Shown in pieces: positions 783 through 20,446 of a DNA stretch of 21,868 bases (position 1 is its first letter; each line of letters starts with the position of its first letter). Where the stretch lies: IMG/VR virus record IMGVR_UViG_2700989545_000008. One strand, written 5' to 3'. This stretch comes from a virus (Duplodnaviria > Heunggongvirae > Uroviricota > Caudoviricetes). Below the pieces are notes generated by a model. The model had not been told where the DNA came from. It saw only the letters and a list, made by a program, of their open reading frames with translations, and made no database searches. The translations under genes and the position numbers were made by a program.

Positions 783-3700
783 TTATGCGTATTGTTGGAT
801 GACGGCCAGAACGTCCGCCACGTTGTGTTTTGTCTCGATAATCCACCAGTTACCCGGGAAATCGCTGTTCTTCGCCTTCGCTGGCAGCCAGCGAGCGCCG
901 AATTTCGCCTTGATTGCGTCTTTCGCACGGAAAAGAACGCCTTTCATGCCTGAGGCTTCCTGAAGCCCAAATACCTCGCCAGCGGCGAATTTTGGTGCGT
1001 ACATCATCTTCAGGTCGGCGGTGGATACGCGATAATTCAGACCAAGAGACTGAGCTATGCTGGTGGCATCACCCTGTATTGATGATAACTCTTCTTGTTT
1101 CTCGTTTCTGGCGGCAATCTCTTCCTCCGTGATGTTGCCAAGGGCTAGGTTTATCCGATCAGCGTCGGCCTGTTTCTCTTCATCGGTGCGCCCGGCAAGA
1201 ACCGTGTTAATTCTCTGCAATATCTCCACATGATTCTTGCGCATGCTGAGCAATTCCGGCGTAACCTCGTTAAGATCCACCAGCCCAAGGATGGCAAGGT
1301 CGGAAAACATTGATACCAGGTTGTAGGTCATGCGATAGCTGAGTTGACCATAGGCTGATGGCAACTTCACCGCATCCATTTGATAGGCATCCATAAATTT
1401 AGAGCCGTCGTTTACGACATCCGCTATTGCAGGTGTGATTTTCCCTGTGGTGGCGGCCTCCCTGATTGCTGTTACCCACGATTGAGTCAGCGCGGCGACT
1501 GCATGATTCAGATTGGCTTCCCGTTCTGCTGCGATGCGCGCGCTTGCTGCGTCCATTGCCTGCTTGATCTCGGCTTTATTGCTGTAAATGCCAATGGTGC
1601 CAAACTGTGCTGTGGTGATCTCATAATCTGACGCCCGGAACTCATTGGTACCGAAAATGGCATTGGTGACTTCAAGTTCAGAATCCCCGTTACGAGTAGC
1701 CCCCTGGCTTGTTTTTTCCGGCATTCTGGCGATCGCATCCGCTATTTTCTCCTGAATTGCTTCAGGGGATAGCGTATCTCCGTATGACGCGATTACATCG
1801 CCATAATTGGAGCCAAACAGTTCAACCAGGAATGTTTCTGCCGAACGGATCTGGCGGTTATTCCCTTCCGACATCATACCAAGCACCCATTTTGCAATTG
1901 ACGACTTCAGCGCGCCGTCACGGCGATCCGGGTAAACCGCATGCTTCAGTGGGTCCGTATAGGTACCAACAAAATCGATGCTATAGCCTGACTCTGTAGT
2001 CTGAACGCCGTATGAGTCAGTGATTTTGATCATGCCGCGCTGCTGGAAACGGTAGAAATCGTCACAGGAAATGATGTCGTTAATCCCGGCGATGGAGACG
2101 CCACCACTGATTTTCTGCATAACAGCATCTTCATCGGGAGTTACATCAACCTGTTTATCCAGCGTCTTCACATCCCAGTTACCCGATTTGGTGCCTTTGA
2201 AGGTAAAGATGATCTCCACGTCTGCGCGCTGGCTGTCGAAGTCCAGCGACTTAATGCGAACGATATCACCGGCACAATCATAGTATTGGCCTACACGCCA
2301 TGAGCGATCGCCGATAACAAGGAACTCATTCGCATGGTTAACCAGATCAGGATCAACATCCAGAATGCCTTTATTTATTGCATCCTCCACCAGCGGGCGC
2401 AGGCGTTTGATATCCGTCGCGGCCTTCTGAGTACGGTTCAATAATTTCTCATAGCGGGAGATGGCCTGAGAGATATTAGCCTTGCGCTGAATGGCGCTTT
2501 TCAACGACGCGCGATACTGTGCTAACAACATACGGTCTGTGTGATGGACGCTACCCCAGCGGGCTTTCCAGTCTGCGTTATCAGCTGCTTTGGCCATTAC
2601 CGCCTGTTTGAATTTAGCTACCTCGGCGGTGGTCTTTTCAAGTTCCGCTTTGCTTCGCTCCAATTCAGCGGTAAGTACCTCCACATCCTCACCAGCTGCG
2701 TGCTGCGCCTTGATGTAGTTCTGAAGGTCGATAGTAGCCTGTTCTTTCTGGCGAGCGCGTTTCGCAGCTTTCGCCTTATCCATTTGAACCTGCATCATTG
2801 CCAGACGTTCGCCGTCATCCTTCGCGGTATACATCTGCATTTCGATCATGTCATTGGCGTCGGCGTTCTCCATTTCTGACTTATCTGAACGGAGGATATC
2901 GGAGATCCAGCCTGCTTTACGCTTCAGCGTCTTCAGTCGGTATTCATCGAAAGACCCCTTGCCGCAGTAGTAGTGAACGCGAACGCTTGCACGGTTGGAG
3001 CCAACTCGTGCACCGCGACCGTTACGTTGTGCGATGCTGGCTGGTGTCCATGGCAACGTCAGATGATGGATGTCAGTCGTTCCTCGATGCAGGTTGATAC
3101 CCACCTCTGCCTTTTTGTTGCAGATGATGATCGGAGTCCGGCCCTCCTGGAAGTCGGCTGCAATCTTTTCCAGACCGCCCAACGACATTTCATTTTGCTG
3201 CGCGATATAGGCGTCATACAGAGCCATTTGCTCGTTGTATTTCGCTATCTGTGCATCTGTTGGTTCATCCGGTAGCTCTTTCGGCGGTTTAACCGCTTTC
3301 AGTTTCTTACCGGTTTTACCTGCCTCGGCAACCGTCTGAGCATTCAGGATCCCCACCTTTGAAGGTTCAAGGTTTAGAGCATTGCAGATAATGCGCTTGA
3401 GCTTCTGGTGCTGCGTTTTTTCATCGGTGAAGATGATTTGCTTACCTTCCGGGAAAAACTCCTTCAGCGTGGCGATCAGCTTCGCGTATTTCGGCGTAAC
3501 GGGGTGAGTTACGGTCTGTTCGTCAATGCCAAACCTGGCCAGGCGCTTATTCACTTCCTGCTCGAACGCTTCCGGAACCTGCAACTGAATAAACTCGCCC
3601 TTATCTATCAGGGAGTATTGCGATTGCTGCGTGATTGAATCATCACTGTCGTCGTCTTCGCTGGTGGCTTGTTTAGGCAAACTGTCCGCCAGCTGCTGCA

Positions 3701-6700
3701 CCGCATCGGCGTACTCCGGCAGGAAACGATAGGTGATCCGGCGATAGTACAGGTCCATGTCAGTACATACGCGGTCCATATCCCTGATTATTGAGAAGAT
3801 CGGACGGGCTTTCTCGTGCTCAATCACGCCGTCTTCATTGACCGAGGTCGTTACGCCATTGTTGGCTTTGGCCGCCGCTTCCGCCTGCTGACGCAATTCT
3901 TCATACGCCGCCAGTTGTTCTTCAGTAAGTGGTGCATCCTGCTGGTGTTCGTCCAGCTCCGGGATCTCCACGGTATCCTTAACGTCTTCCGCCGTTTTAA
4001 GCGTTACCCAGCGATGGAATATACCGCGCAGCGCATCAAGGTTTTCAAAGCCCACCAGCGCCATTTTTTCTTCAACTTCACCGCTAATTTTCTGTACCGT
4101 TTCCAGCCTGGTCTTGCCGAAGAATTTAACGAAGTCATCAGGACCGTAGATCCCCATGTTCTGCCAGTATTCCTTCGGCAGAACATGAGAAAGCATGTTG
4201 TATGCATCGATCGGGGTGTTAACGACTGGCGTTGCAGTCAGGAGAACCGGCCCGCGCCCGCCATTCTTTTTCATCAGGTACGCGTTTTTAATTGCCATAT
4301 CTCGCGCCGATTGCGCCACCGCGCTGGTGGGCAGATAGGCCAGTTGTGACGCTTCGCGACCATTTTTATAGCTATTGCGGTAGTTGTGACCTTCGTCGGC
4401 GATCACACTATCGAAGCCCATATCCTCAAAGTACGGATACTTCTCTGCTTTTTCGGTGCCGGTATCTGAATACTCCGACAATACCCGGCGACGCGCGGCC
4501 TCTTTGCGGTGGGAGTCGGAGTCCATTGCGCTGGCTACGCGCCCGGCTGCAACGAAGTCATAAAGCATATCCTGTGCATGCTCATCTACGGTGTCATCAC
4601 GTAGCGGAATGCGGGCGTATTGTTCTTTGGTAAACACGACTGCACGGTAATTTGAGTGCGGGATCGCGTTCATCCGCGCCGTGATAGTGGCTTCATCTGC
4701 CAGTTTTAGGGCATCGCGCATAACTGGAGTGCCATCAGTACCAAGAACAGGTTTACCGTTCTCATCGAGCACCGGCACCTGGCGAATCTGATCGCCATCC
4801 ATCAGCACATCAAGACCGACGAACAGGTAGTTACTGAATGCCTCTTCACTCAGGAATTCTTTTGCTTCGTAATACCAGTTTTCCAGCACTGATTTAGGCA
4901 CTACATACGCAGTACGGGTGGAGCGACCGTTCTCATAGTTGAACGCCTCAAGCGCCAGCGCGGTCGTAGTTTTACCCAGCCCGGTGCCGAAGCCCAGGAT
5001 GCCGCGCCCATCTTCGGACAGTCGGCGCACTTCGCTATTCTGGTAATCAAATGGCTGGCGCTTACCGCTTAATCCCTTCAACCCAAGCGGATCGCCAGAG
5101 TGTTCATACGGGATATTGCTATTGAACACATCGTTGTATTTGGCAACCAGTTCATCGTAGCGATCGTGCGTCTTGATCCACTTATTGAACTGGTCCTCAA
5201 GCAGTGCCATCTGCTCGCGGTAGCCGTTCGCCGTCGCGCTATCTTTGCCACCGATACGCGCACCATTGAGATACTTTTCCAGCTGTGCCGGGAACCCGGT
5301 CGCGTTTTCACCTGATTTACGGTCCCACTCGTAGCGGATCTCGCCTGTTTCTTTATCCTTGCGCTGGACGACACCGTATCGGTGCCCGACGAACAGGCCA
5401 TCACCACCGTGATAGGTGTCAGAAACCATTTCGTCGCCTTCCAGCTGCACTGACTGCACATAGCGCAGATCCGGATAGCCGTTTTCCTGCAAAAACTCCA
5501 GAATGACGGAACGGTCGAACCAACGGCTATTGAGCTTAAACCGGATATTCTCTGCTGGCGTCTTGATGCGCTTCTCTTCGATCGCTGCCAGCTGATTAAG
5601 GACGTTGTTCTTTACTGGACCGTCGGGGAGCGTGGCGAGGAATTCCTGTTTTGGAGCCACTATCTCGTTAATGTCGCCGCTGGTGGCGCGGGCGAACGGA
5701 ACAATCCCGCCATACGGTGAAACCGCAATACCAGGAGTGCTGGCCAATAAATTAAGCAACTCTTCATCACTGGCTGGCAATTCGCCGGTAAACGCAAGGC
5801 GGAAATCATCGAGCTGGATTGGATCGCGGGTAAGATCGCTATAGAGATAACGCAGGGTGTCCTGATAGCTGGTGGAGTCATAACTGGCGCTGGAATCATG
5901 CGTAACCAGCTTTCCTGTCAGCTCGTCAGAAATAGTGCCATCCAGCTTAATTGCACCACGGAAAGCAAACCAGGCGCGCGCACCGCTTCCCGATAATTTA
6001 GCTATCGGACCGCGACCAGGGTTACCAAAACGGTCAATCTCTGCCTGCAAACGGGATACCAGAGAAAGGCGCTGCTGTTCGATTTGTTCAGCACTATGCC
6101 CGGCGGCCTTCATATCCTGATATTCAATTAACATCCGGCCAATCATCGCCCCACGATACAAGCGTTCACGGTATTTTTCAGGCTGGCTGTTAATCCAGTC
6201 CACCAGCTGCACCATATCGTCGCTGATTGATGTGGTGTACTTATCGCGGACATTTGCCATCTGGGTAAATGTCATACCGAGACGGCCTTCTGTTGTAGTC
6301 AGGTTACGCTGAAGAGCCTCCCAGCTATCCGCGCCATAACTGGCAGCATCAATTTTAAGTTCCTTCCCGGCATCAGCTTCAATCCAGCGACCACCAGCAT
6401 ATTTTTGCCATACGCCATTAATCAGGCGCATTTCCCCTTCACCAACAACGTCTGCGGTCAGTGACGGTTCAGCCATATCGAGCAAAGACCAGTCGATACG
6501 GCTTTCGAAACGATGAATCAGCTTCGCTTTAAGAGCCTGGTTATCAATCTGACCGTCGGCACGAACCTCAATACGCCCCTGGAAGCCCTTTTCCTGGGTG
6601 CCATGAACAAACCGGCGGCCATCCTTTTCAAACCACTTGCCAGAAATAAACGTTGGCCAAAGCACATTTGCCGATTCAAGAGTGCTTTCATCCACCAGGG

Positions 6701-11854: not shown

Positions 11855-11950
11855 ATGTGTAAAAAACGACTGAAAGAAAAGCGGTGGTCCAGACGCCGAC
11901 AAAAGCACGAACTCGCAAACAAACGCCAAAGTTGGCAATGGCACGCGCTT

Positions 11951-12031
11951 NNNNNNNNNNNNNNNNNNNNNNNNNNNNNNNNNNNNNNNNNNNNNNNNNN
12001 NNNNNNNNNNNNNNNNNNNNNNNNNNNNNNN
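11951..12031. other. 81-nt run of N (masked or unresolved sequence)
   Basis: Literal n characters. The long 11884-12729 ORF in the track is an artefact of translating through them. Confidence 1.
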
Positions 12032-12051
12032 TTTTAAGCAGAGGAAAGACT

Positions 12052-12729
12052 ATGAATAACATGACAACGAAAGAGCTTTTGACGGCACTTCCAAAATACA
12101 AAAGCCATAAAACAGTTCGCGCCTCAAAAATCAAAGATATCGAAATTATCGCCCTAATGGATGTGGTCCTTTTTTGCAACATCGAAGTCGTTGAGCCAGA
12201 AGGGGTAAAAGTCCATGTTGATAAAATGTTTTTGCAAAAACACCGACCAGAAATTGGCGGATATCTGGTCGCTTATGAGGACGGATCTCTGTCCTATTCA
12301 CCAGAAAAAACATTTGAAGAAGGCTTTAGTCGGACTAACGACTTCTTCGAAAATGGGGTATCGCTCAGTATTGAAGGTCACAATGGGGTGACATTCATTA
12401 CAGCCAGGGACGTAACTATTGCTGCCAGTGGCATCATTACCACACAAGAAGAAATCGACCTTGAAGCAGCCGACTTTTCTGACGCGCTGATGTGGCTGAA
12501 GGATGGCAAGAAAGTTGCTCGACGCGGGTGGAACGGCGAAAACCAATTCTGCTGGCTGGTTCCTGAAGGACAGTACCCGGCACGAATGGAAGCCATTAAG
12601 GGATATTTCCCCGGCGACCTCGTTCCGTATGGTGCTTATTTCGCCTTAAAAAATGCACAAGGTGTAGTTGTTCCGTGGGTTCCTTCTGTAGGCGACTTAC
12701 TGGCATGTGACTGGTTTGTAGTGGAGTGA
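12052..12729 (+). CDS. Two-domain cargo protein: unknown N-terminal domain plus C-terminal DUF2829 (Tad2-like) domain
   Basis: ATG at 12052 with GAGGAAAG 4-11 nt upstream. C-terminal ~85 aa (FSDALMWLKDGKKVARRGWNG...VVVPWVPSVGDLLACDWFVVE) follow the DUF2829 pattern as I remember it. The frame is open back into the N run, so a longer N-terminus cannot be excluded. Confidence 0.7.
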   Translation: MNNMTTKELLTALPKYKSHKTVRASKIKDIEIIALMDVVLFCNIEVVEPEGVKVHVDKMFLQKHRPEIGGYLVAYEDGSLSYSPEKTFEEGFSRTNDFFENGVSLSIEGHNGVTFITARDVTIAASGIITTQEEIDLEAADFSDALMWLKDGKKVARRGWNGENQFCWLVPEGQYPARMEAIKGYFPGDLVPYGAYFALKNAQGVVVPWVPSVGDLLACDWFVVE

Positions 12730-12735
12730 TTTAAC

Positions 12736-13518
12736 GTGGAAAATACTAAAGCAATTCAATACCGCCTGCGTAATGGTCAGAGTGTCGAAGTGACCATCAA
12801 TAATGATGGTGTGCCTGGCGAAAAGGTTTCGATCTCTGATCTGGCTATCGAAAAAACCATCATGTGCCACCTTGGCTTTACTGAAGAAGTGAGCAAAAAG
12901 CATGGTGTAGCAATCTGGAGCGCAATGGATACTGGTATGCGCAGATTCATTACTGCTCGTACCCCAGGGATGACCATGATGGACCTCATGCAGATTGCGC
13001 CGCTGTTTGAATGTGAGCCTTTAGATGTATTCAGCAATCCAGCTATCTGCCAGCAGCTATATGGTGAGATGAAACTCGCGGTTACCCCCATTGTGCTGCA
13101 TGAAGGATCGCTTGCTGGCGTGTGGAAAGTGGAGCGTATTTCAAGCTACATGCCTTTCCATGTCAACGGCGTAATCACTGGTGAAAATCAACCTGTTTCC
13201 GTTATAAAGTCAGACCTCAAGCGCGCAATTCTTGAAGCAAGTTGTCGAGTTGTCGGCCTGGGCAAACAGTCTTATGTTTCCTTCCCGGCTGGCCCTGAAG
13301 GCCCGGCAGAAATTCTGATTATGGATGCCGATCTGCTCTGGCAAATACAGTTTCTGATTGGCAAAAGCATCATCCGCGCTGAAGAACTCGATCAGTACAT
13401 TACCTGCACGATGACGGATGAAGTCAAAAGTGTGGCTATAGCCAATGCCCGGAACCTATGTCGTGCTGCATTAACAGAACTGCAAGAAAACACCACGGAA
13501 GAAGTGGAAAGCGATTAA
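12736..13518 (+). CDS. Hypothetical 260-aa protein coupled to the DUF2829 gene
   Basis: GTG start 7 nt after the upstream stop, GGAG Shine-Dalgarno inside the upstream gene's last codons. No motif recognised. Ends at the strong terminator. Confidence 0.6.
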   Translation: MENTKAIQYRLRNGQSVEVTINNDGVPGEKVSISDLAIEKTIMCHLGFTEEVSKKHGVAIWSAMDTGMRRFITARTPGMTMMDLMQIAPLFECEPLDVFSNPAICQQLYGEMKLAVTPIVLHEGSLAGVWKVERISSYMPFHVNGVITGENQPVSVIKSDLKRAILEASCRVVGLGKQSYVSFPAGPEGPAEILIMDADLLWQIQFLIGKSIIRAEELDQYITCTMTDEVKSVAIANARNLCRAALTELQENTTEEVESD

Positions 13519-13549
13519 AAAAAATCCCGCCGAGTGGCGGGATTTCTTC
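13517..13549. terminator. Strong bidirectional intrinsic terminator
   Basis: A7 tract, perfect 8-bp GC-rich stem ATCCCGCC / GGCGGGAT with loop GAGT, then TTCTTC. Lies between the convergent stops of the 12736-13518 and 13548-13856 ORFs. Confidence 0.8.
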
Positions 13550-13856
13550 AATATACGATCTGGTCTACATGATCACCAAAATCATCGTCGTCGTCCTCAT
13601 CGCCACCATCTACTGCTGGCCAATCAACAAACCAGCCAGCGTAAAGATGCAGCGTTCGGAGAACATCACTTGCGGGAGCATCAAGGGTGTTAACGAATCC
13701 CATATAGCTATTGGGATTTGCCCCAGCTATGGCTTCAGCGATCATGTCCTCGGTAATGTCACCGGAGATAATGCTTAAACGCCCGGAAACTTCTTCATTA
13801 TCATCAAATTCGATAATGGCATCTCCACCTAATGGCGCTGCGATTTTAATCTGCAT
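13548..13856 (-). CDS. Extremely acidic 102-aa protein, translationally coupled to the ddrB-like gene
   Basis: ATG overlaps the end of the upstream ORF by 11 nt. About 23 Asp/Glu against 3 Lys/Arg, including a C-terminal DGGDEDDDDDFGDHVDQ tract. No helix-turn-helix pattern. Confidence 0.6.
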   Translation of the reverse strand: MQIKIAAPLGGDAIIEFDDNEEVSGRLSIISGDITEDMIAEAIAGANPNSYMGFVNTLDAPASDVLRTLHLYAGWFVDWPAVDGGDEDDDDDFGDHVDQIVY

Positions 13857-16718
13857 TATTTAGCTCCTTTGCCACACCTAATAACAGTTCCAGCAATCCG
13901 TCACCATTCATCAGTGATGCGGCAGCGGCCTCTTTGTCATGATACAACTGAAGAGCCATAGAGAATACTTCCGTTGCTGACGTTTTGGAAATAGTCGGTG
14001 ATTTCTGCCGAATTTTCCCGGTGTTACTTACTGAGGCTGGCGGGTATACCTTCGCCATATAAATATTACTCAATCGAGATCTGAAGCACCATTCAGGCTT
14101 GCCACGCCCACCGATATTGACGAAAGATGGCTTATCCCCTTCAACATTGGACTTCAGGAATGACCGGGCTTTCTCTAACAAACCAGGGTTACTGTACTCA
14201 AGATGATGACCCAGCTCGTGCCACAGTGCACTTGCATTTTCATCGTTCAAATTGACAGCAACAACACCATTAAGATTTGCATATGCCCTTCCCTGGTGGT
14301 GAACTACCTTTGATAAGGTCGATATTTTCCCGCCGGTCAGGCGATAAATATCAGCAAGTTCCTTGCGCAGGTCTATCCCACCATTCTGTCCAGCGCGGAC
14401 TTCTTCCACTTCTTCTGTGATAAAAGAGTCGGCCCACTCAAGAGCTTTTTCTTCAGATACGGATGAGTTTGCGATCGCACTGTTCATGGCAGATAACACT
14501 TTCTCGTGGACCGAACCCATACTTCGCTGATTCATTTGCCAGCGTATCTGCGGGTTATATGAGAATCGCTTAAGTAGTTGGTCAAGCTGCTCAAGTTCTT
14601 CTTCACTGACATACTTTTTAGCCTCACCAATAATGCCAGGGAGAATATTGCCGTTAGGATTAAACGCTCGCGAAAGGAAGAGTTTCAGCGCCCCCATGCC
14701 CTCCGATGCTTCAATATCACCAATAACCCGGTTAACAATGGCCGCACTCTTCGGATTAGCATCCGCCAACGCTCTGGCTACGATTTGCAGGGACGATACG
14801 ACCTCACGCTGCATATCAGTCCTGATCTCATCAATAAACTCTGGCGTTATGCCGTGCTCTTTAAGAATATCCCGGCCTTCCGCCGTTACCCCATCGATAT
14901 CACCGACATGTTTATTAACACGACTTTGCAATGCCTTAAATGCCTTCAGAATTCCACGGGCATCATCCGCTTTACTAACGGCCTTCCTGAATGCTGGCAA
15001 GAAGTCTGAGTTAACCTCATTTTGTCGATCGGCCCACTGAATGGAGGCTTCTTTCATCTCGTCCAGAGTCAGATCAACCAACGCGGTATGGTCTGTGAAT
15101 ATGAGCGACAACCTCTGAACCATTTCTGCCAATGGTGATGCCGAATGCGCCGCGCTAAGGAATGCTTTCACCCTGGTTGGGCGAATGGAAAACCAGTCAA
15201 TAGCTGGTGGCATATCTCCGTTTTTTATCGCCTGCGCTATCTCGTCAAAGCCATCGCGCCCAAGGGAGGATGCGTGATTTAACAAGCCGCGAAGTAACGA
15301 ATTGCTGATACCGAATAATCGGCACCATTTTTTCACGTCGGCAACAGGCATTCGAACAAAATGCGCAAGCACTTGTACAAGCTGTTCATCCTGGGGATCT
15401 GTGCGGGAAAGCAGCCTGATCAGATGAATAATGTCTTTGATGCCGGATGCCCGATGTAATAGCAAACTGGTATACGGAGCAACACCGTTGTAACTACCGC
15501 CGGAAACGGACTCGAAAAGNNNNNNNNNNNNNNNNNNNNNNNNNNNNNNNNNNNNNNNNNNNNNNNNNNNNNNNNNNNNNNNNNNNNNNNNNNNNNNNNN
15601 NNNNNNNNNNNNNNNNNNNNNNNNNNNNNNNNNNNNNNNNNNNNNNNNNCCCCCTGAGCAATAACATCGGTAATATGCTGGCCTGACTCCTTCGATTGCC
15701 TTACCAGGTCTACCGCATCTTTCAATGCCGCCAGCGCCTTTTTATCGAGGCTATCCGCTGTCTCAATGCCATCAACAATAGTTGTCACAGCCTGCTTGTG
15801 CGCTTCTCCTGATAAAGCCTGCATCTGGACAAAATCATTGGCTGCCGCATTAAGCGCCGTCAGAACATTACGCATATCCGGATCAGGTTCTTCTGCAACC
15901 ATCCTTACCAGGCGCGCATCCTTATATGCCTTGGCAAAGATCGCGTTTTGTATACGGTCTACAAGTTGCCGTGTTGGTCGCCCATCTTCAGTTACAAGGC
16001 CAGCCGCCTGTGTGGCACCAACTTGCGTCATAAATCCGCGAATAAACGCGTCATTACTGCGGCTAAGCAGATCTCCACTTTCTGACGGGTTAAACAACGC
16101 CATCATCGCCGGTGTTATGCTGTCGGCATCAACAAAAGCCTTTTCACTGGCTGCCATTTCCTGGAGATCAGAAATATTTGAGTCCTTGGCAAACTGAACA
16201 CGGTCAACCTTCGTTAACCGGCGGCGCACCAGTACCGGAGCCGTCATTGATTCAACCTTTTCAGGCCGTATGCCGAATTCGGTCGCATGTTCAATCAGGT
16301 ACTCCCGATACCGATCCGCATTACCGTCCTGATAGGCTTTAATGATCCCCATGGTCCGCCCATTACCTGACTCAACGGCATTGTCCTCACCAATTATTGG
16401 CGCACCATGGCTGGATAAACCGGAATCAGTAAGCTGAGCTGGCCGCAAATCTTTGGATATCTGGTTAACCTGAAGAAGGCTGGATGCGCGGGTCCGGTCG
16501 CGCGGCTGAAGTTCCTGGGGATAGTCAGGATTAATTTTCCCATCCAGAGTATTGGATACCAAAAGAGCTGAGGCATCGACGATATCAAACGCTGTTTTTA
16601 CCTCGTCTCCCTTCGCTGTCACCACATACGAAACCCGCCCATAATCGGGCAGGTTCTTTAGCAGCTCGATCAGCGTTTCTATGCTGGTGGCCATTACCAC
16701 CTGATCGCTTAAGCTCAT
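13846..16718 (-). CDS. ddrB: DdrB-like large darA-operon protein, interrupted by an N run; contains an HExxH motif
   Basis: N-terminal part 15651-16718 (356 codons) and C-terminal part 13846-15519 (open to the N-run edge; track start 15465 is only a TTG). The two parts are in different frames if the N run is exactly 130 nt. LWHELGHHLEYS in the C-terminal part. Together about 950 aa, consistent with the roughly 108-kDa DdrB I recall. Confidence 0.5.
15520..15649. other. 130-nt run of N inside the ddrB-like gene
   Basis: Literal n characters; flanking frames differ by one nucleotide. Confidence 1.
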
Positions 16719-16730
16719 CCCTGTTACGCC

Positions 16731-17096
16731 TTATGCTGCCTCTTTAATGTTGGCGGCTATCCATGCCGCAGTGTGCTGTTTAACCTGGTCCAGGTCGATG
16801 TATGTGCCAACATATTGACTCAAATCCTGCAAGGTACCGATAAATGCATCGGTGCTCTGATCGACGAATTTATCAGCCAGGAAATCAGCAACCAGTTTTG
16901 GCACACCATCATGTTCCGAAGGTTGTTTTTCCTCGCCACTACCACCGCCGGACGCGCCGTACCCCATCTGTTGCATGATCTGGTCAATTTCATCGCTGAT
17001 ATCCAGCAACTCCATGCCACTCGCGGTAGCCGCTTTGGACATCAGAGCATCCAACTTATCGCTGAGATCCATTAACTCAATAGCTGATAGTGTCAT
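16731..17096 (-). CDS. ddrA: DdrA-like small acidic protein of the darA operon
   Basis: 121-aa ORF; ATG overlaps the darA stop (ATGA); 12 nt upstream of the ddrB-like start. Assignment by synteny. Confidence 0.5.
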   Translation of the reverse strand: MTLSAIELMDLSDKLDALMSKAATASGMELLDISDEIDQIMQQMGYGASGGGSGEEKQPSEHDGVPKLVADFLADKFVDQSTDAFIGTLQDLSQYVGTYIDLDQVKQHTAAWIAANIKEAA

Positions 17097-19013: not shown

Positions 19014-19616
19014 TTAATTTCCTGCTTTCAGTTGCTTAAGACGGCGTTTGAGTTCGCCATTTCGGGCCTTTTCGTTATTGAGTCGGCCTGTCTCCTTATC
19101 CAGCTTCGCCCGCAAATCAGTGATCTGCTGTTGATTGAAAGACACCGAGTTCTGCGCTGATTTATAAGCGGCAACCACCTGAGCATTCCGCTGTTTTGCC
19201 TCTTGCAGGCGCTGAAAGTTGGATTTTACTGCCGGTTTCTTGTCTACCGGATTGGCAACACGTTTCGCTTTGGCGATCAGTGATTTCTGGAATTTTGCGG
19301 AGTTTTTGCGGGCCGCTTGCCCCATGACGGTACCAAGCGTCTTGATATCCGGCGACTGAGCGTTAGGAATAGCTTTTCCATTCAGCCTCACAGACGATAT
19401 ATCGCCAGTATCGTTTACCTGTATGGCAAGAATTTGTCCGTCGTTAAGAACCAGCTTTGCGGTTTTAACTTTAACGCCATCTTTCGTTGTTGCGCGGTTG
19501 CTGGAGTCAACCTCAATTACCGTAACACCGGTTTTATTGATCGCCGCGATAAGGGATTTCAGCCCCTTTTCATTAACCTGGTCAAAATCGACCGTTGCAT
19601 ACTTATTTTTCGTCAT
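19014..19616 (-). CDS. hdf: Hdf-like protein (head-size determination factor; DarA paralogue)
   Basis: Second ATG (MTKNKYATVDF...) is preceded by GGATG-type Shine-Dalgarno; about 200 aa. Contains AARKNSAKFQKSLIAKAK, resembling the DarA segment. Ends 1 nt before the darA start. Confidence 0.6.
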   Translation of the reverse strand: MTKNKYATVDFDQVNEKGLKSLIAAINKTGVTVIEVDSSNRATTKDGVKVKTAKLVLNDGQILAIQVNDTGDISSVRLNGKAIPNAQSPDIKTLGTVMGQAARKNSAKFQKSLIAKAKRVANPVDKKPAVKSNFQRLQEAKQRNAQVVAAYKSAQNSVSFNQQQITDLRAKLDKETGRLNNEKARNGELKRRLKQLKAGN

Positions 19617-20046
19617 CTGACACATCCTGTGCGAGATTTATTACGTAACTTCTGCGGATTTGCTGAGTAACAGGGAAAATCCGATACAACGGGTTAATGA
19701 ACGAGTCGCCATGCGTAACCATGACGTTGAAATGCCACAGTCGCTCTCCTTTACCCATATATTCAGTGGGTATGTACAACCATTCACTGTTTTCGCCCTG
19801 TTCAGCCGACGTCAAACAACGTTGTTCGCCTTCAATCACTGTCGTCGGCTTCTGAACATCGCGGATCCAATATCTGACCGTTGCGCCGCGCAAAAACGGG
19901 AATTTAGACCGGTATTTGAACGGCACCCGGATGAAACCCGGTTTAATTTCCACATCACCAAGTTCTAAATGCGTGATGTCCTTGCGTTTTAGCAAATAGC
20001 GATCGGCTAAGGCTAACGCAAGAACGCATACACCCCAGCCAATCAT
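19603..20046 (-). CDS. lydB: LydB-like lysis regulator (antiholin)
   Basis: 147-aa ORF; ATG overlaps the lydA stop (ATGA); N-terminal hydrophobic segment. Position matches lydA-lydB-hdf-darA order. Confidence 0.55.
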   Translation of the reverse strand: MIGWGVCVLALALADRYLLKRKDITHLELGDVEIKPGFIRVPFKYRSKFPFLRGATVRYWIRDVQKPTTVIEGEQRCLTSAEQGENSEWLYIPTEYMGKGERLWHFNVMVTHGDSFINPLYRIFPVTQQIRRSYVINLAQDVSDDEK

Positions 20047-20372: not shown

Positions 20373-20446
20373 AAGTTCCCTCCTACGTTGTCAGGAGGTA
20401 ATGGTATGCAAAGTAACTTCTCAACCGGTTATGTTGCATAAGAGAC

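Follow-up and report, generated by a model that had tools for sequence, protein, structure and literature searches.

Ocr (T7 gp0.3) and ArdA are small, strongly acidic antirestriction proteins that mimic DNA (see also PMC10149784), and the Dar (defence against restriction) system of phage P1 is the textbook case of antirestriction delivered from the capsid. The Dar system is counted as six proteins (PMC12810830), both in reviews and in the 2026 head structure paper, and DdrB, DdrA, DarA, Hdf, DarB and Ulx are among the proteins detected in purified P1 virions (PMC9024508). DdrB is an internal head protein required for DarB function; its C-terminal domain is a predicted zincin-like autopeptidase or metallopeptidase (MPTase), and the protein is reportedly processed to about 76 kDa before packaging (PMC5512222). 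Here, we analyzed hxr, a small gene overlapping the 3′ end of ddrB in a 21,868-nucleotide (nt) stretch of viral DNA (Caudoviricetes; IMG/VR record IMGVR_UViG_2700989545_000008), hereafter “the window”, i.e., that stretch at its full length. The source element is a P1-like phage-plasmid, and hxr is the terminal gene of its late darA operon.

New here are the rejection of the Xre label that Hxr carries, the conservation of its acidity across the family, and its strict pairing with a peptidase-bearing DdrB. From gene anatomy and phyletic pattern, we tentatively read Hxr as a partner dedicated to the C-terminal half of DdrB and co-translated with it, i.e., an inhibitor, placeholder or assembly chaperone, and hold this reading at somewhat less than even strength. 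Hxr would in this way bear on the question of how DdrB is processed and loaded. The relabelling also concerns the many P1-like phage and phage-plasmid records, some with resistance genes, to which the misannotation “putative repressor Hxr” has spread.

Linkage of hxr to a peptidase-bearing ddrB

Across the loci compared, Hxr and full-length DdrB showed a strict two-way co-occurrence. In the one direction, hxr follows a DdrB bearing the HExxH motif in 86 of 87 P1-clade loci and in 16/16 divergent IMG/VR loci, and likewise in the loci that we numbered L004, L005, L007, L088, L089, L090, L094, L095 and L101. Complete Hxr-paired DdrB open reading frames (ORFs) are about 930–1050 amino acids (aa) long, and the HExxH-containing motif WHExGHHxE was invariant in 11 divergent DdrB homologs.

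Starting from DdrB, we searched with patterns from its N-terminal ParB half, one genome per species, which returned three kinds of locus. Full-length DdrBs (966–1017 aa, with WHExGHHxE) were each followed by a small acidic overlapping ORF. Two of these ORFs are very divergent: that of Serratia (L094) encodes 104 aa with a net charge of −17 and aligned to Hxr with an hhalign E of 9e-4, and that of Rosenbergiella (L101) encodes 107 aa with a net charge of −14 and gave a colinear alignment in which only a local motif was significant. Five independent short DdrBs of 442–500 aa, from Enterobacter, two Pantoea, Erwinia and Buttiauxella (L096–L100), consist of the ParB-like half only, and the 704-aa DdrB of Thaumasiovibrio (L102) is likewise devoid of the C-terminal half. 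At these short-DdrB loci (L096–L100 and L102), no Hxr-like ORF and no DdrB C-terminal half was found within ~3 kb on each side of the tblastn match. Finally, giant polyvalent proteins of Marinomonas extended past the fetched DNA. Since the short DdrBs are without both, Hxr tracks the C-terminal, peptidase-motif half of DdrB rather than its ParB domain. At L096, a 208-aa basic ORF, lysozyme-like by eye, overlaps the DdrB stop in place of hxr.

The junction between the two genes is conserved as well. In every divergent lineage examined, hxr overlaps the ddrB stop by 8–17 nt, with 11 nt in L004, L005, L088, L089 and L090, 17 nt in L007, and 11 or 14 nt in 16/16 divergent IMG/VR loci; in the window, the hxr ATG sits 8 nt upstream of the ddrB stop. 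The arrangement in which Lys-Glu codons of ddrB supply the ribosome-binding site, i.e., K-E encoded by AAGGA(G/A), is retained in L004, L005, L088 and L089, and DdrB C-termini among homologs read KEL, KEI or KEV. This coupling embedded in the last codons of ddrB persists in DdrBs only 41–45% identical to that of P1. In L088, a P1-like element of Klebsiella variicola, a GerE-family gene and ssb lie between ddrA and ddrB (3548–4920), so that the dar operon is split by an insertion, with the ddrB-hxr overlap still intact.

Transcription follows the same layout. The late promoter LPdar drives lydA-lydB-hdf-darA-ddrA-ddrB-hxr, which places hxr in the darA operon of P1 Dar internal-head-protein genes, and no minus-strand sigma-70-like site was found between LPdar and hxr within 13500–16800. 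A terminator hairpin lies directly past the hxr stop, with an RNA fold of −22.4 kcal/mol (z = −5.3; 0/200 shuffles equally stable). It is common to hxr and to the convergent isaA-like gene that meets it head-on, and comparable hairpins stand 3′ of hxr in L004, L005, L007, L088 and L089. A simple terminator scan missed the hairpin because its stem takes in part of the U run, and direct folding revealed it. With LPdar upstream, no promoter of its own and a terminator directly after it, hxr closes the late operon as its last cistron. The coordinates of these features are given in Table 1.

Table 1. Position of hxr, of the parts of its product and of the associated operon features in the window.
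Feature	Coordinates	Strand	Description
hxr coding sequence	13548..13856	-	ATG to TGA, 102 codons; stop TGA at 13548-13550; PHROG 2292 match
Hxr folded core, residues 1-82	13611..13856	-	net charge -10; three beta strands, two helices and a short further strand (predicted)
Hxr acidic tail, residues 83-102	13551..13610	-	DGGDEDDDDDFGDHVDQIVY; net charge -10; predicted disordered; hydrophobic-X tip
GAT/GAC/GAG repeat	13581..13601	-	encodes DEDDDDD; read from the sequence; length-polymorphic
ddrB stop/hxr start overlap	13846..13856	-	11 nt; hxr ATG 13856-13854, ddrB TAA 13848-13846; translational coupling junction
Shine-Dalgarno AAGGAG	13864..13869	-	7 nt before the hxr ATG; made of Lys-Glu codons at the DdrB C-terminus
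Intrinsic terminator	13517..13546	-	begins 2 nt past the hxr stop; stem AAAUCCCGCC/GGCGGGAUUU, then U run
Late promoter LPdar	20401..20419	-	AAGTTACTTTGCATACCAT; identical to P1; assigned from P1 annotation and sequence identity
ddrB	13846..16718	-	ParB-like N-terminal half and C-terminal half with WHELGHHLE zincin motif; N-run 15520-15649

The ddrB gene of the window matches the Pfam ddrB-ParB family and is 98–99% identical to P1 ddrB on either side of its masked run. This run holds 130 N where P1 and SJ46 carry 245 nt; the difference of 115 nt is not a multiple of 3, so that ddrB appears split into two ORFs here, and the masking means that its intactness in the window cannot be judged. Searches for structural relatives of the DdrB C-terminal domain returned only weak zincin matches, and the peptidase assignment therefore rests on the invariant WHExGHHxE motif together with the published prediction (PMC5512222). 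Directly after WHELGHHLE, residues 901–950 of P1 DdrB (about 13981–14130 of the window, minus strand) form a basic stretch of net charge +9. In DdrBs paired with canonical Hxr, the corresponding charge was +6 to +10 in 60 residues, and L094 and L101, the pairs that diverge most, had no such stretch. Covariation between this basic patch and the acidic Hxr tail was suggestive, not clean, and is not relied on.

Several features of the surrounding DNA can be set beside these. Charge is polarised within the operon: DdrA (16731–17096, minus strand; 121 aa) has a net charge of −14, and Hdf (19014–19625, minus strand; 203 aa) is strongly basic, at +21 with an isoelectric point of 10.3; in the 2026 head structure, the DarA-Hdf complex has a positively charged DNA-facing surface. 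Genes beyond hxr vary by lineage (IS1/isaB, porin, RelE/MqsA, Arc, DUF905). The segment from ssb to hxr (11884–13518, plus strand) is a cargo hot spot: the window and SJ46 have a 281-aa ORF and the isaA-like gene there, P1 has isaA, IS1 and isaB, and P7 has the nmpC porin. Immediately past hxr, other lineages carry RelE/MqsA, Arc or DUF905 genes. A second masked run of 81 nt (11951–12031) falls inside the 281-aa ORF after ssb and equals its SJ46 counterpart in length.

The hxr gene, its acidic product and its family

By these comparisons, the window ORF is an already-known, annotated P1 gene, hxr, which is functionally uncharacterised and mislabelled. Its product, MQIKIAAPLGGDAIIEFDDNEEVSGRLSIISGDITEDMIAEAIAGANPNSYMGFVNTLDAPASDVLRTLHLYAGWFVDWPAVDGGDEDDDDDFGDHVDQIVY (translation of the ORF), is 98% identical to P1 Hxr, with two substitutions relative to P1 (N56D and A81V), and 100% identical to a protein of phage vB_EcoM-813R1. 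The PHROG 2292 profile covers residues 1–102 (E 2e-59). The DNA flanking hxr is 98.5% identical to P1, and the DNA around the gene is 98–99.5% identical to P1, P7, SJ46 and other punaviruses. The P1 counterpart (P1_gp021, YP_006490.1) is annotated as “possible repressor; homolog of Xre”, and the P7 counterpart, odaA, as “unknown function”, a label that PHROG 2292 likewise bears.

On sequence grounds, hxr is a real coding gene under purifying selection. Its frame is uninterrupted in 86/87 related P1-clade loci, the remaining locus being a contig end, and among 18 distinct alleles, 14 of the 18 variable sites in the core fall at codon position 3, with 13 synonymous vs 5 nonsynonymous changes. 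It is this intact frame and third-position bias, together with homologs at 28–62% identity, that identify hxr as coding. On the opposite strand, a 106-aa ORF (13458–13778, plus strand) begins within the isaA-like gene, overlaps the terminator and hxr, and reads through the hairpin; we judged it to be a shadow ORF of hxr.

Hxr has 23 acidic residues (17 D and 6 E) against 3 basic ones (1 K and 2 R), a computed charge of −20.3 at pH 7 and a molecular mass of 11.0 kDa, and includes the tract DGGDEDDDDD. At −0.19 per residue, Hxr leads the window's 62 stop-to-stop frames of ≥90 aa in acidity by a wide margin, and the ddrA product comes second at −0.11 per residue. The charge is split about evenly between the two parts of the protein. 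In an AlphaFold2 model of the monomer built with a 20-sequence alignment (mean predicted local distance difference test score, pLDDT, of 76), the core has 10-residue block means of 68–89, mostly 81–89, and the tail falls below 50 at residues 83–87 and 93–102. The predicted elements are strands at residues 2–6, 12–16 and 28–32 and helices at 36–44 and 62–71.

Word-indexed and exhaustive HMMER searches recovered a family of ~20 distinct full-length sequences at 28–62% identity, spanning ~12 divergent lineages. Members with a context or a source name belong to P1-like elements, several of them on 80–96 kb contigs, and the sources include Escherichia, Salmonella, Klebsiella, Citrobacter, Rosenbergiella and Cronobacter phage JK004. 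Invariant residues are G53, V65, L66, R67, L69, W75, W79 and P80. The tail is free to vary in sequence, yet its charge remains between −7 and −13 in 20/20 family members, and that of the core ranges from −4 to −10; as judged from these alignments, acidity is selected in both core and tail of all members. The C-terminal tip is conserved too, as IVY in the P1 clade and mostly as IVN or VVN elsewhere. Among near-identical P1-clade alleles, the run after GGD(E/D) contains 4–8 Asp and is always in frame, and some P1-clade alleles carry another tail, ending in DDDDDEEVFSDETVNQLLY. At the metagenomic locus L007 (8001–8555, protein P0015), Hxr is a tandem duplication of 184 aa with two copies of the core (62% and 43% identity to P1 Hxr), paired with a DdrB that is 95% identical to P1. 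This pairing indicates that Hxr can diverge or recombine independently of ddrB.

Searches beyond the family returned little. No family in Pfam (E up to 10) or NCBIfam matched Hxr, queries of PDB sequences with either the protein alone or the profile produced no meaningful match, and Foldseek of the model against BFVD gave nothing below E 0.2. Within the libraries searched, no solved chain, Ocr and ArdA included, showed sequence or fold likeness to Hxr. These libraries are expected to contain Arn, barstar-like inhibitors and secretion chaperones, although this was not confirmed one by one. Exhaustive HMMER searches recurrently hit FG-GAP/VCBS repeat proteins at residues 23–49, a motif-level likeness (GDVTGDGVAEIVTG vs SGDITEDMIAEAIAG) that we rejected as homology.

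A sequence-only reading of this stretch had described a hyper-acidic protein at the end of the dar cluster, translationally coupled to the ddrB-like gene and devoid of a helix-turn-helix pattern. Each of these observations held: the composition and the DGGDEDDDDD tract are as described above, the 11-nt overlap and the AAGGAG 7 nt before the ATG support coupling, hxr is the final cistron of the late darA operon, and the protein has no helix-turn-helix profile match and a predicted fold containing beta strands. The same reading took the ORF to be distinct from an Xre-like gene at this position in P1. This was mistaken: given flanks 98.5% and a protein 98% identical to P1, that gene is hxr itself, and what lacks support is the database label “Xre homolog”, not the identity of the gene.

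Candidate roles of Hxr

Taken together, the operon, the linkage to ddrB and the absence from the published virion proteome point to a DdrB-linked role over that of an autonomous effector. This rests on the missing likeness to Ocr and ArdA, on the placement of half of the charge in a disordered tail, on the position as last gene of a late operon, on the absence from the published P1 virion proteome (PMC9024508), and on the fact that hxr was never found apart from full-length ddrB. The partner reading further draws on the selection for acidity in core and tail, on the basic stretch after HExxH in DdrBs paired with canonical Hxr, and on hxr being non-essential for plaque formation in a genome-wide CRISPR interference screen (PMC10695390, where Piya 2017 is cited for non-essentiality).

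If Hxr is such a partner, hxr would be transcribed from LPdar and translated by coupling to the end of ddrB, an arrangement that would make Hxr late and in roughly fixed proportion to DdrB. It would then act in the phage-producing cell on the zincin-type metallopeptidase half of DdrB, masking this half, and possibly the basic stretch after HExxH, until processing and prohead loading, and would itself remain outside the virion. Binding of Hxr to DdrB, its inhibitor or chaperone activity and its exclusion from the capsid are what we infer from this arrangement.

Several observations weigh against this partner role. An additional effector passed on en bloc with ddrB would show the same adjacency and co-occurrence. 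The Hxr copies of L007 have diverged much faster (62% and 43% identity) than the accompanying DdrB (95%), which would better suit an outward-facing target in an arms race. The pairing of basic patch and acidic tail is not clean, L094 having kept the acidic tail without the patch. Finally, the absence of Hxr from virion proteomics is a weak negative, since tryptic digestion of Hxr leaves a single peptide of convenient size. A literature search excluding Piya et al. 2017 and Lobocka et al. 2004 found no paper that gives Hxr a function.

The sequence-only reading had instead proposed a DNA mimic, and in its fuller form Hxr would be a DNA-mimic anti-defence protein that blocks a DNA-binding host enzyme, such as a type I restriction enzyme, BREX or a nuclease, either delivered with the capsid or made late. 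We consider this unlikely, though it has real points in its favour. With a net charge of −20 in 102 aa, Hxr is the window's most acidic product, the family stays acidic even where tail sequences differ, and the gene lies within a dedicated antirestriction operon; moreover, the faster divergence than DdrB seen in L007, the duplication and the tail-length polymorphism suggest an arms race. To our knowledge, DNA mimics share no common fold (see the DNA-mimic literature, e.g., the review by Dryden and Tock, 2006), and negative fold searches are for this reason not exclusionary. However, neither profile nor fold searches linked Hxr to Ocr, ArdA or another DNA mimic of solved structure, and half of its charge is carried by a disordered tail, not by a rigid surface in the shape of DNA. 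Restriction takes effect as DNA enters the cell, whereas hxr comes last in a late operon and is served by no early promoter. Hxr was not detected in virions, a negative whose weakness is noted above, and hxr was never found outside the ddrB context and is missing where DdrB is without its C-terminal half, whereas ocr and ardA are modular and scattered. The proposal thus stands as far as charge density and family-wide acidity go, and falls short on profile or fold likeness to Ocr or ArdA; overall, the observation behind it is confirmed and its interpretation partly supported. If Hxr were such a mimic, the class would gain a new fold.

A packaged role is more doubtful. Hxr would here be a seventh, so far undetected packaged Dar component, i.e., an adaptor or structural partner bound to DdrB for the loading or ejection of DarB and Ulx. 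It shares an operon and stoichiometric coupling with the packaged protein DdrB, and small size and acidity are also found in DdrA, a Dar protein whose packaging is confirmed; with its single convenient tryptic peptide, Hxr could have been missed. Against this, Hxr is missing from the virion list obtained with liquid chromatography coupled to tandem mass spectrometry, although the similarly small DdrA and Ulx were detected there with 2–3 peptides (PMC9024508). Paralogy with DdrA was examined and rejected (hhalign probability 0.1%), and the number of Dar proteins is given as six in reviews and in the 2026 head structure paper.

A reading that draws on both DdrB linkage and charge is that Hxr is a protein of new fold using DNA-like negative charge, either as a self-directed mimic that would mask or gate the metallopeptidase and basic surfaces of DdrB until capsid loading, or as a capsid-delivered mimic that would ride on DdrB. 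We regard it as improbable. As a self-directed mimic, Hxr would be a seventh, non-virion component of the Dar system; as for the other form, we know of no description of a capsid-delivered DNA mimic riding on a DdrB-like protein.

The database annotation of Hxr as an Xre-like helix-turn-helix transcriptional repressor, which rests on a P1 GenBank note (28% identity, Hxr 23–80 vs Xre 2–80) and has been propagated as “putative repressor” to SJ46, RCS47, JL22 and others, is effectively refuted: no helix-turn-helix family was matched by the window Hxr at E up to 10, and the 20 family members matched none at E up to 1; hhalign against an HTH_3 protein alignment paired a single 12-residue helix at a probability of 0.4%; the predicted fold opens with three beta strands and has only two helices instead of the five of an all-alpha fold; and direct DNA binding is not compatible with a net charge of −20.

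Comparison with known systems

The closest counterparts, P1 Hxr and P7 OdaA, share with the window hxr the position after ddrB, the 11-nt overlap and the terminator. They part downstream, where P1 has IS1/isaB and the window has an SJ46-type isaA-like gene.

With Ocr and ArdA, Hxr has in common that it is small and very acidic, at a similar charge density, and that it is encoded by an element that fights type I restriction. It differs in being expressed late, whereas Ocr and ArdA have immediate-early or leading-region expression, in carrying much of its charge in a disordered tail, and in being tied to one partner gene.

Acidic tails with a hydrophobic tip, such as those of bacterial SSB (ending in DDDIPF) and T7 gp2.5, serve as docking or nucleic-acid-mimicking elements. 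Hxr is without an OB (oligonucleotide/oligosaccharide-binding) fold and its tip motif is IVY or IVN, but its disordered poly-Asp/Glu tail with a conserved hydrophobic tip may be analogous to theirs.

Inhibitor and immunity genes sit directly downstream of protease or toxin genes, as with the staphostatins after the staphopains and with the C-terminal domains of polymorphic toxins. Hxr has no homology or fold match to these inhibitor and immunity families or to secretion chaperones. By analogy, it nevertheless appears to resemble them in its anatomy: a small acidic protein, encoded by a gene that overlaps the 3′ end of a peptidase-domain gene, strictly co-occurring with that domain and not detected in the virion.

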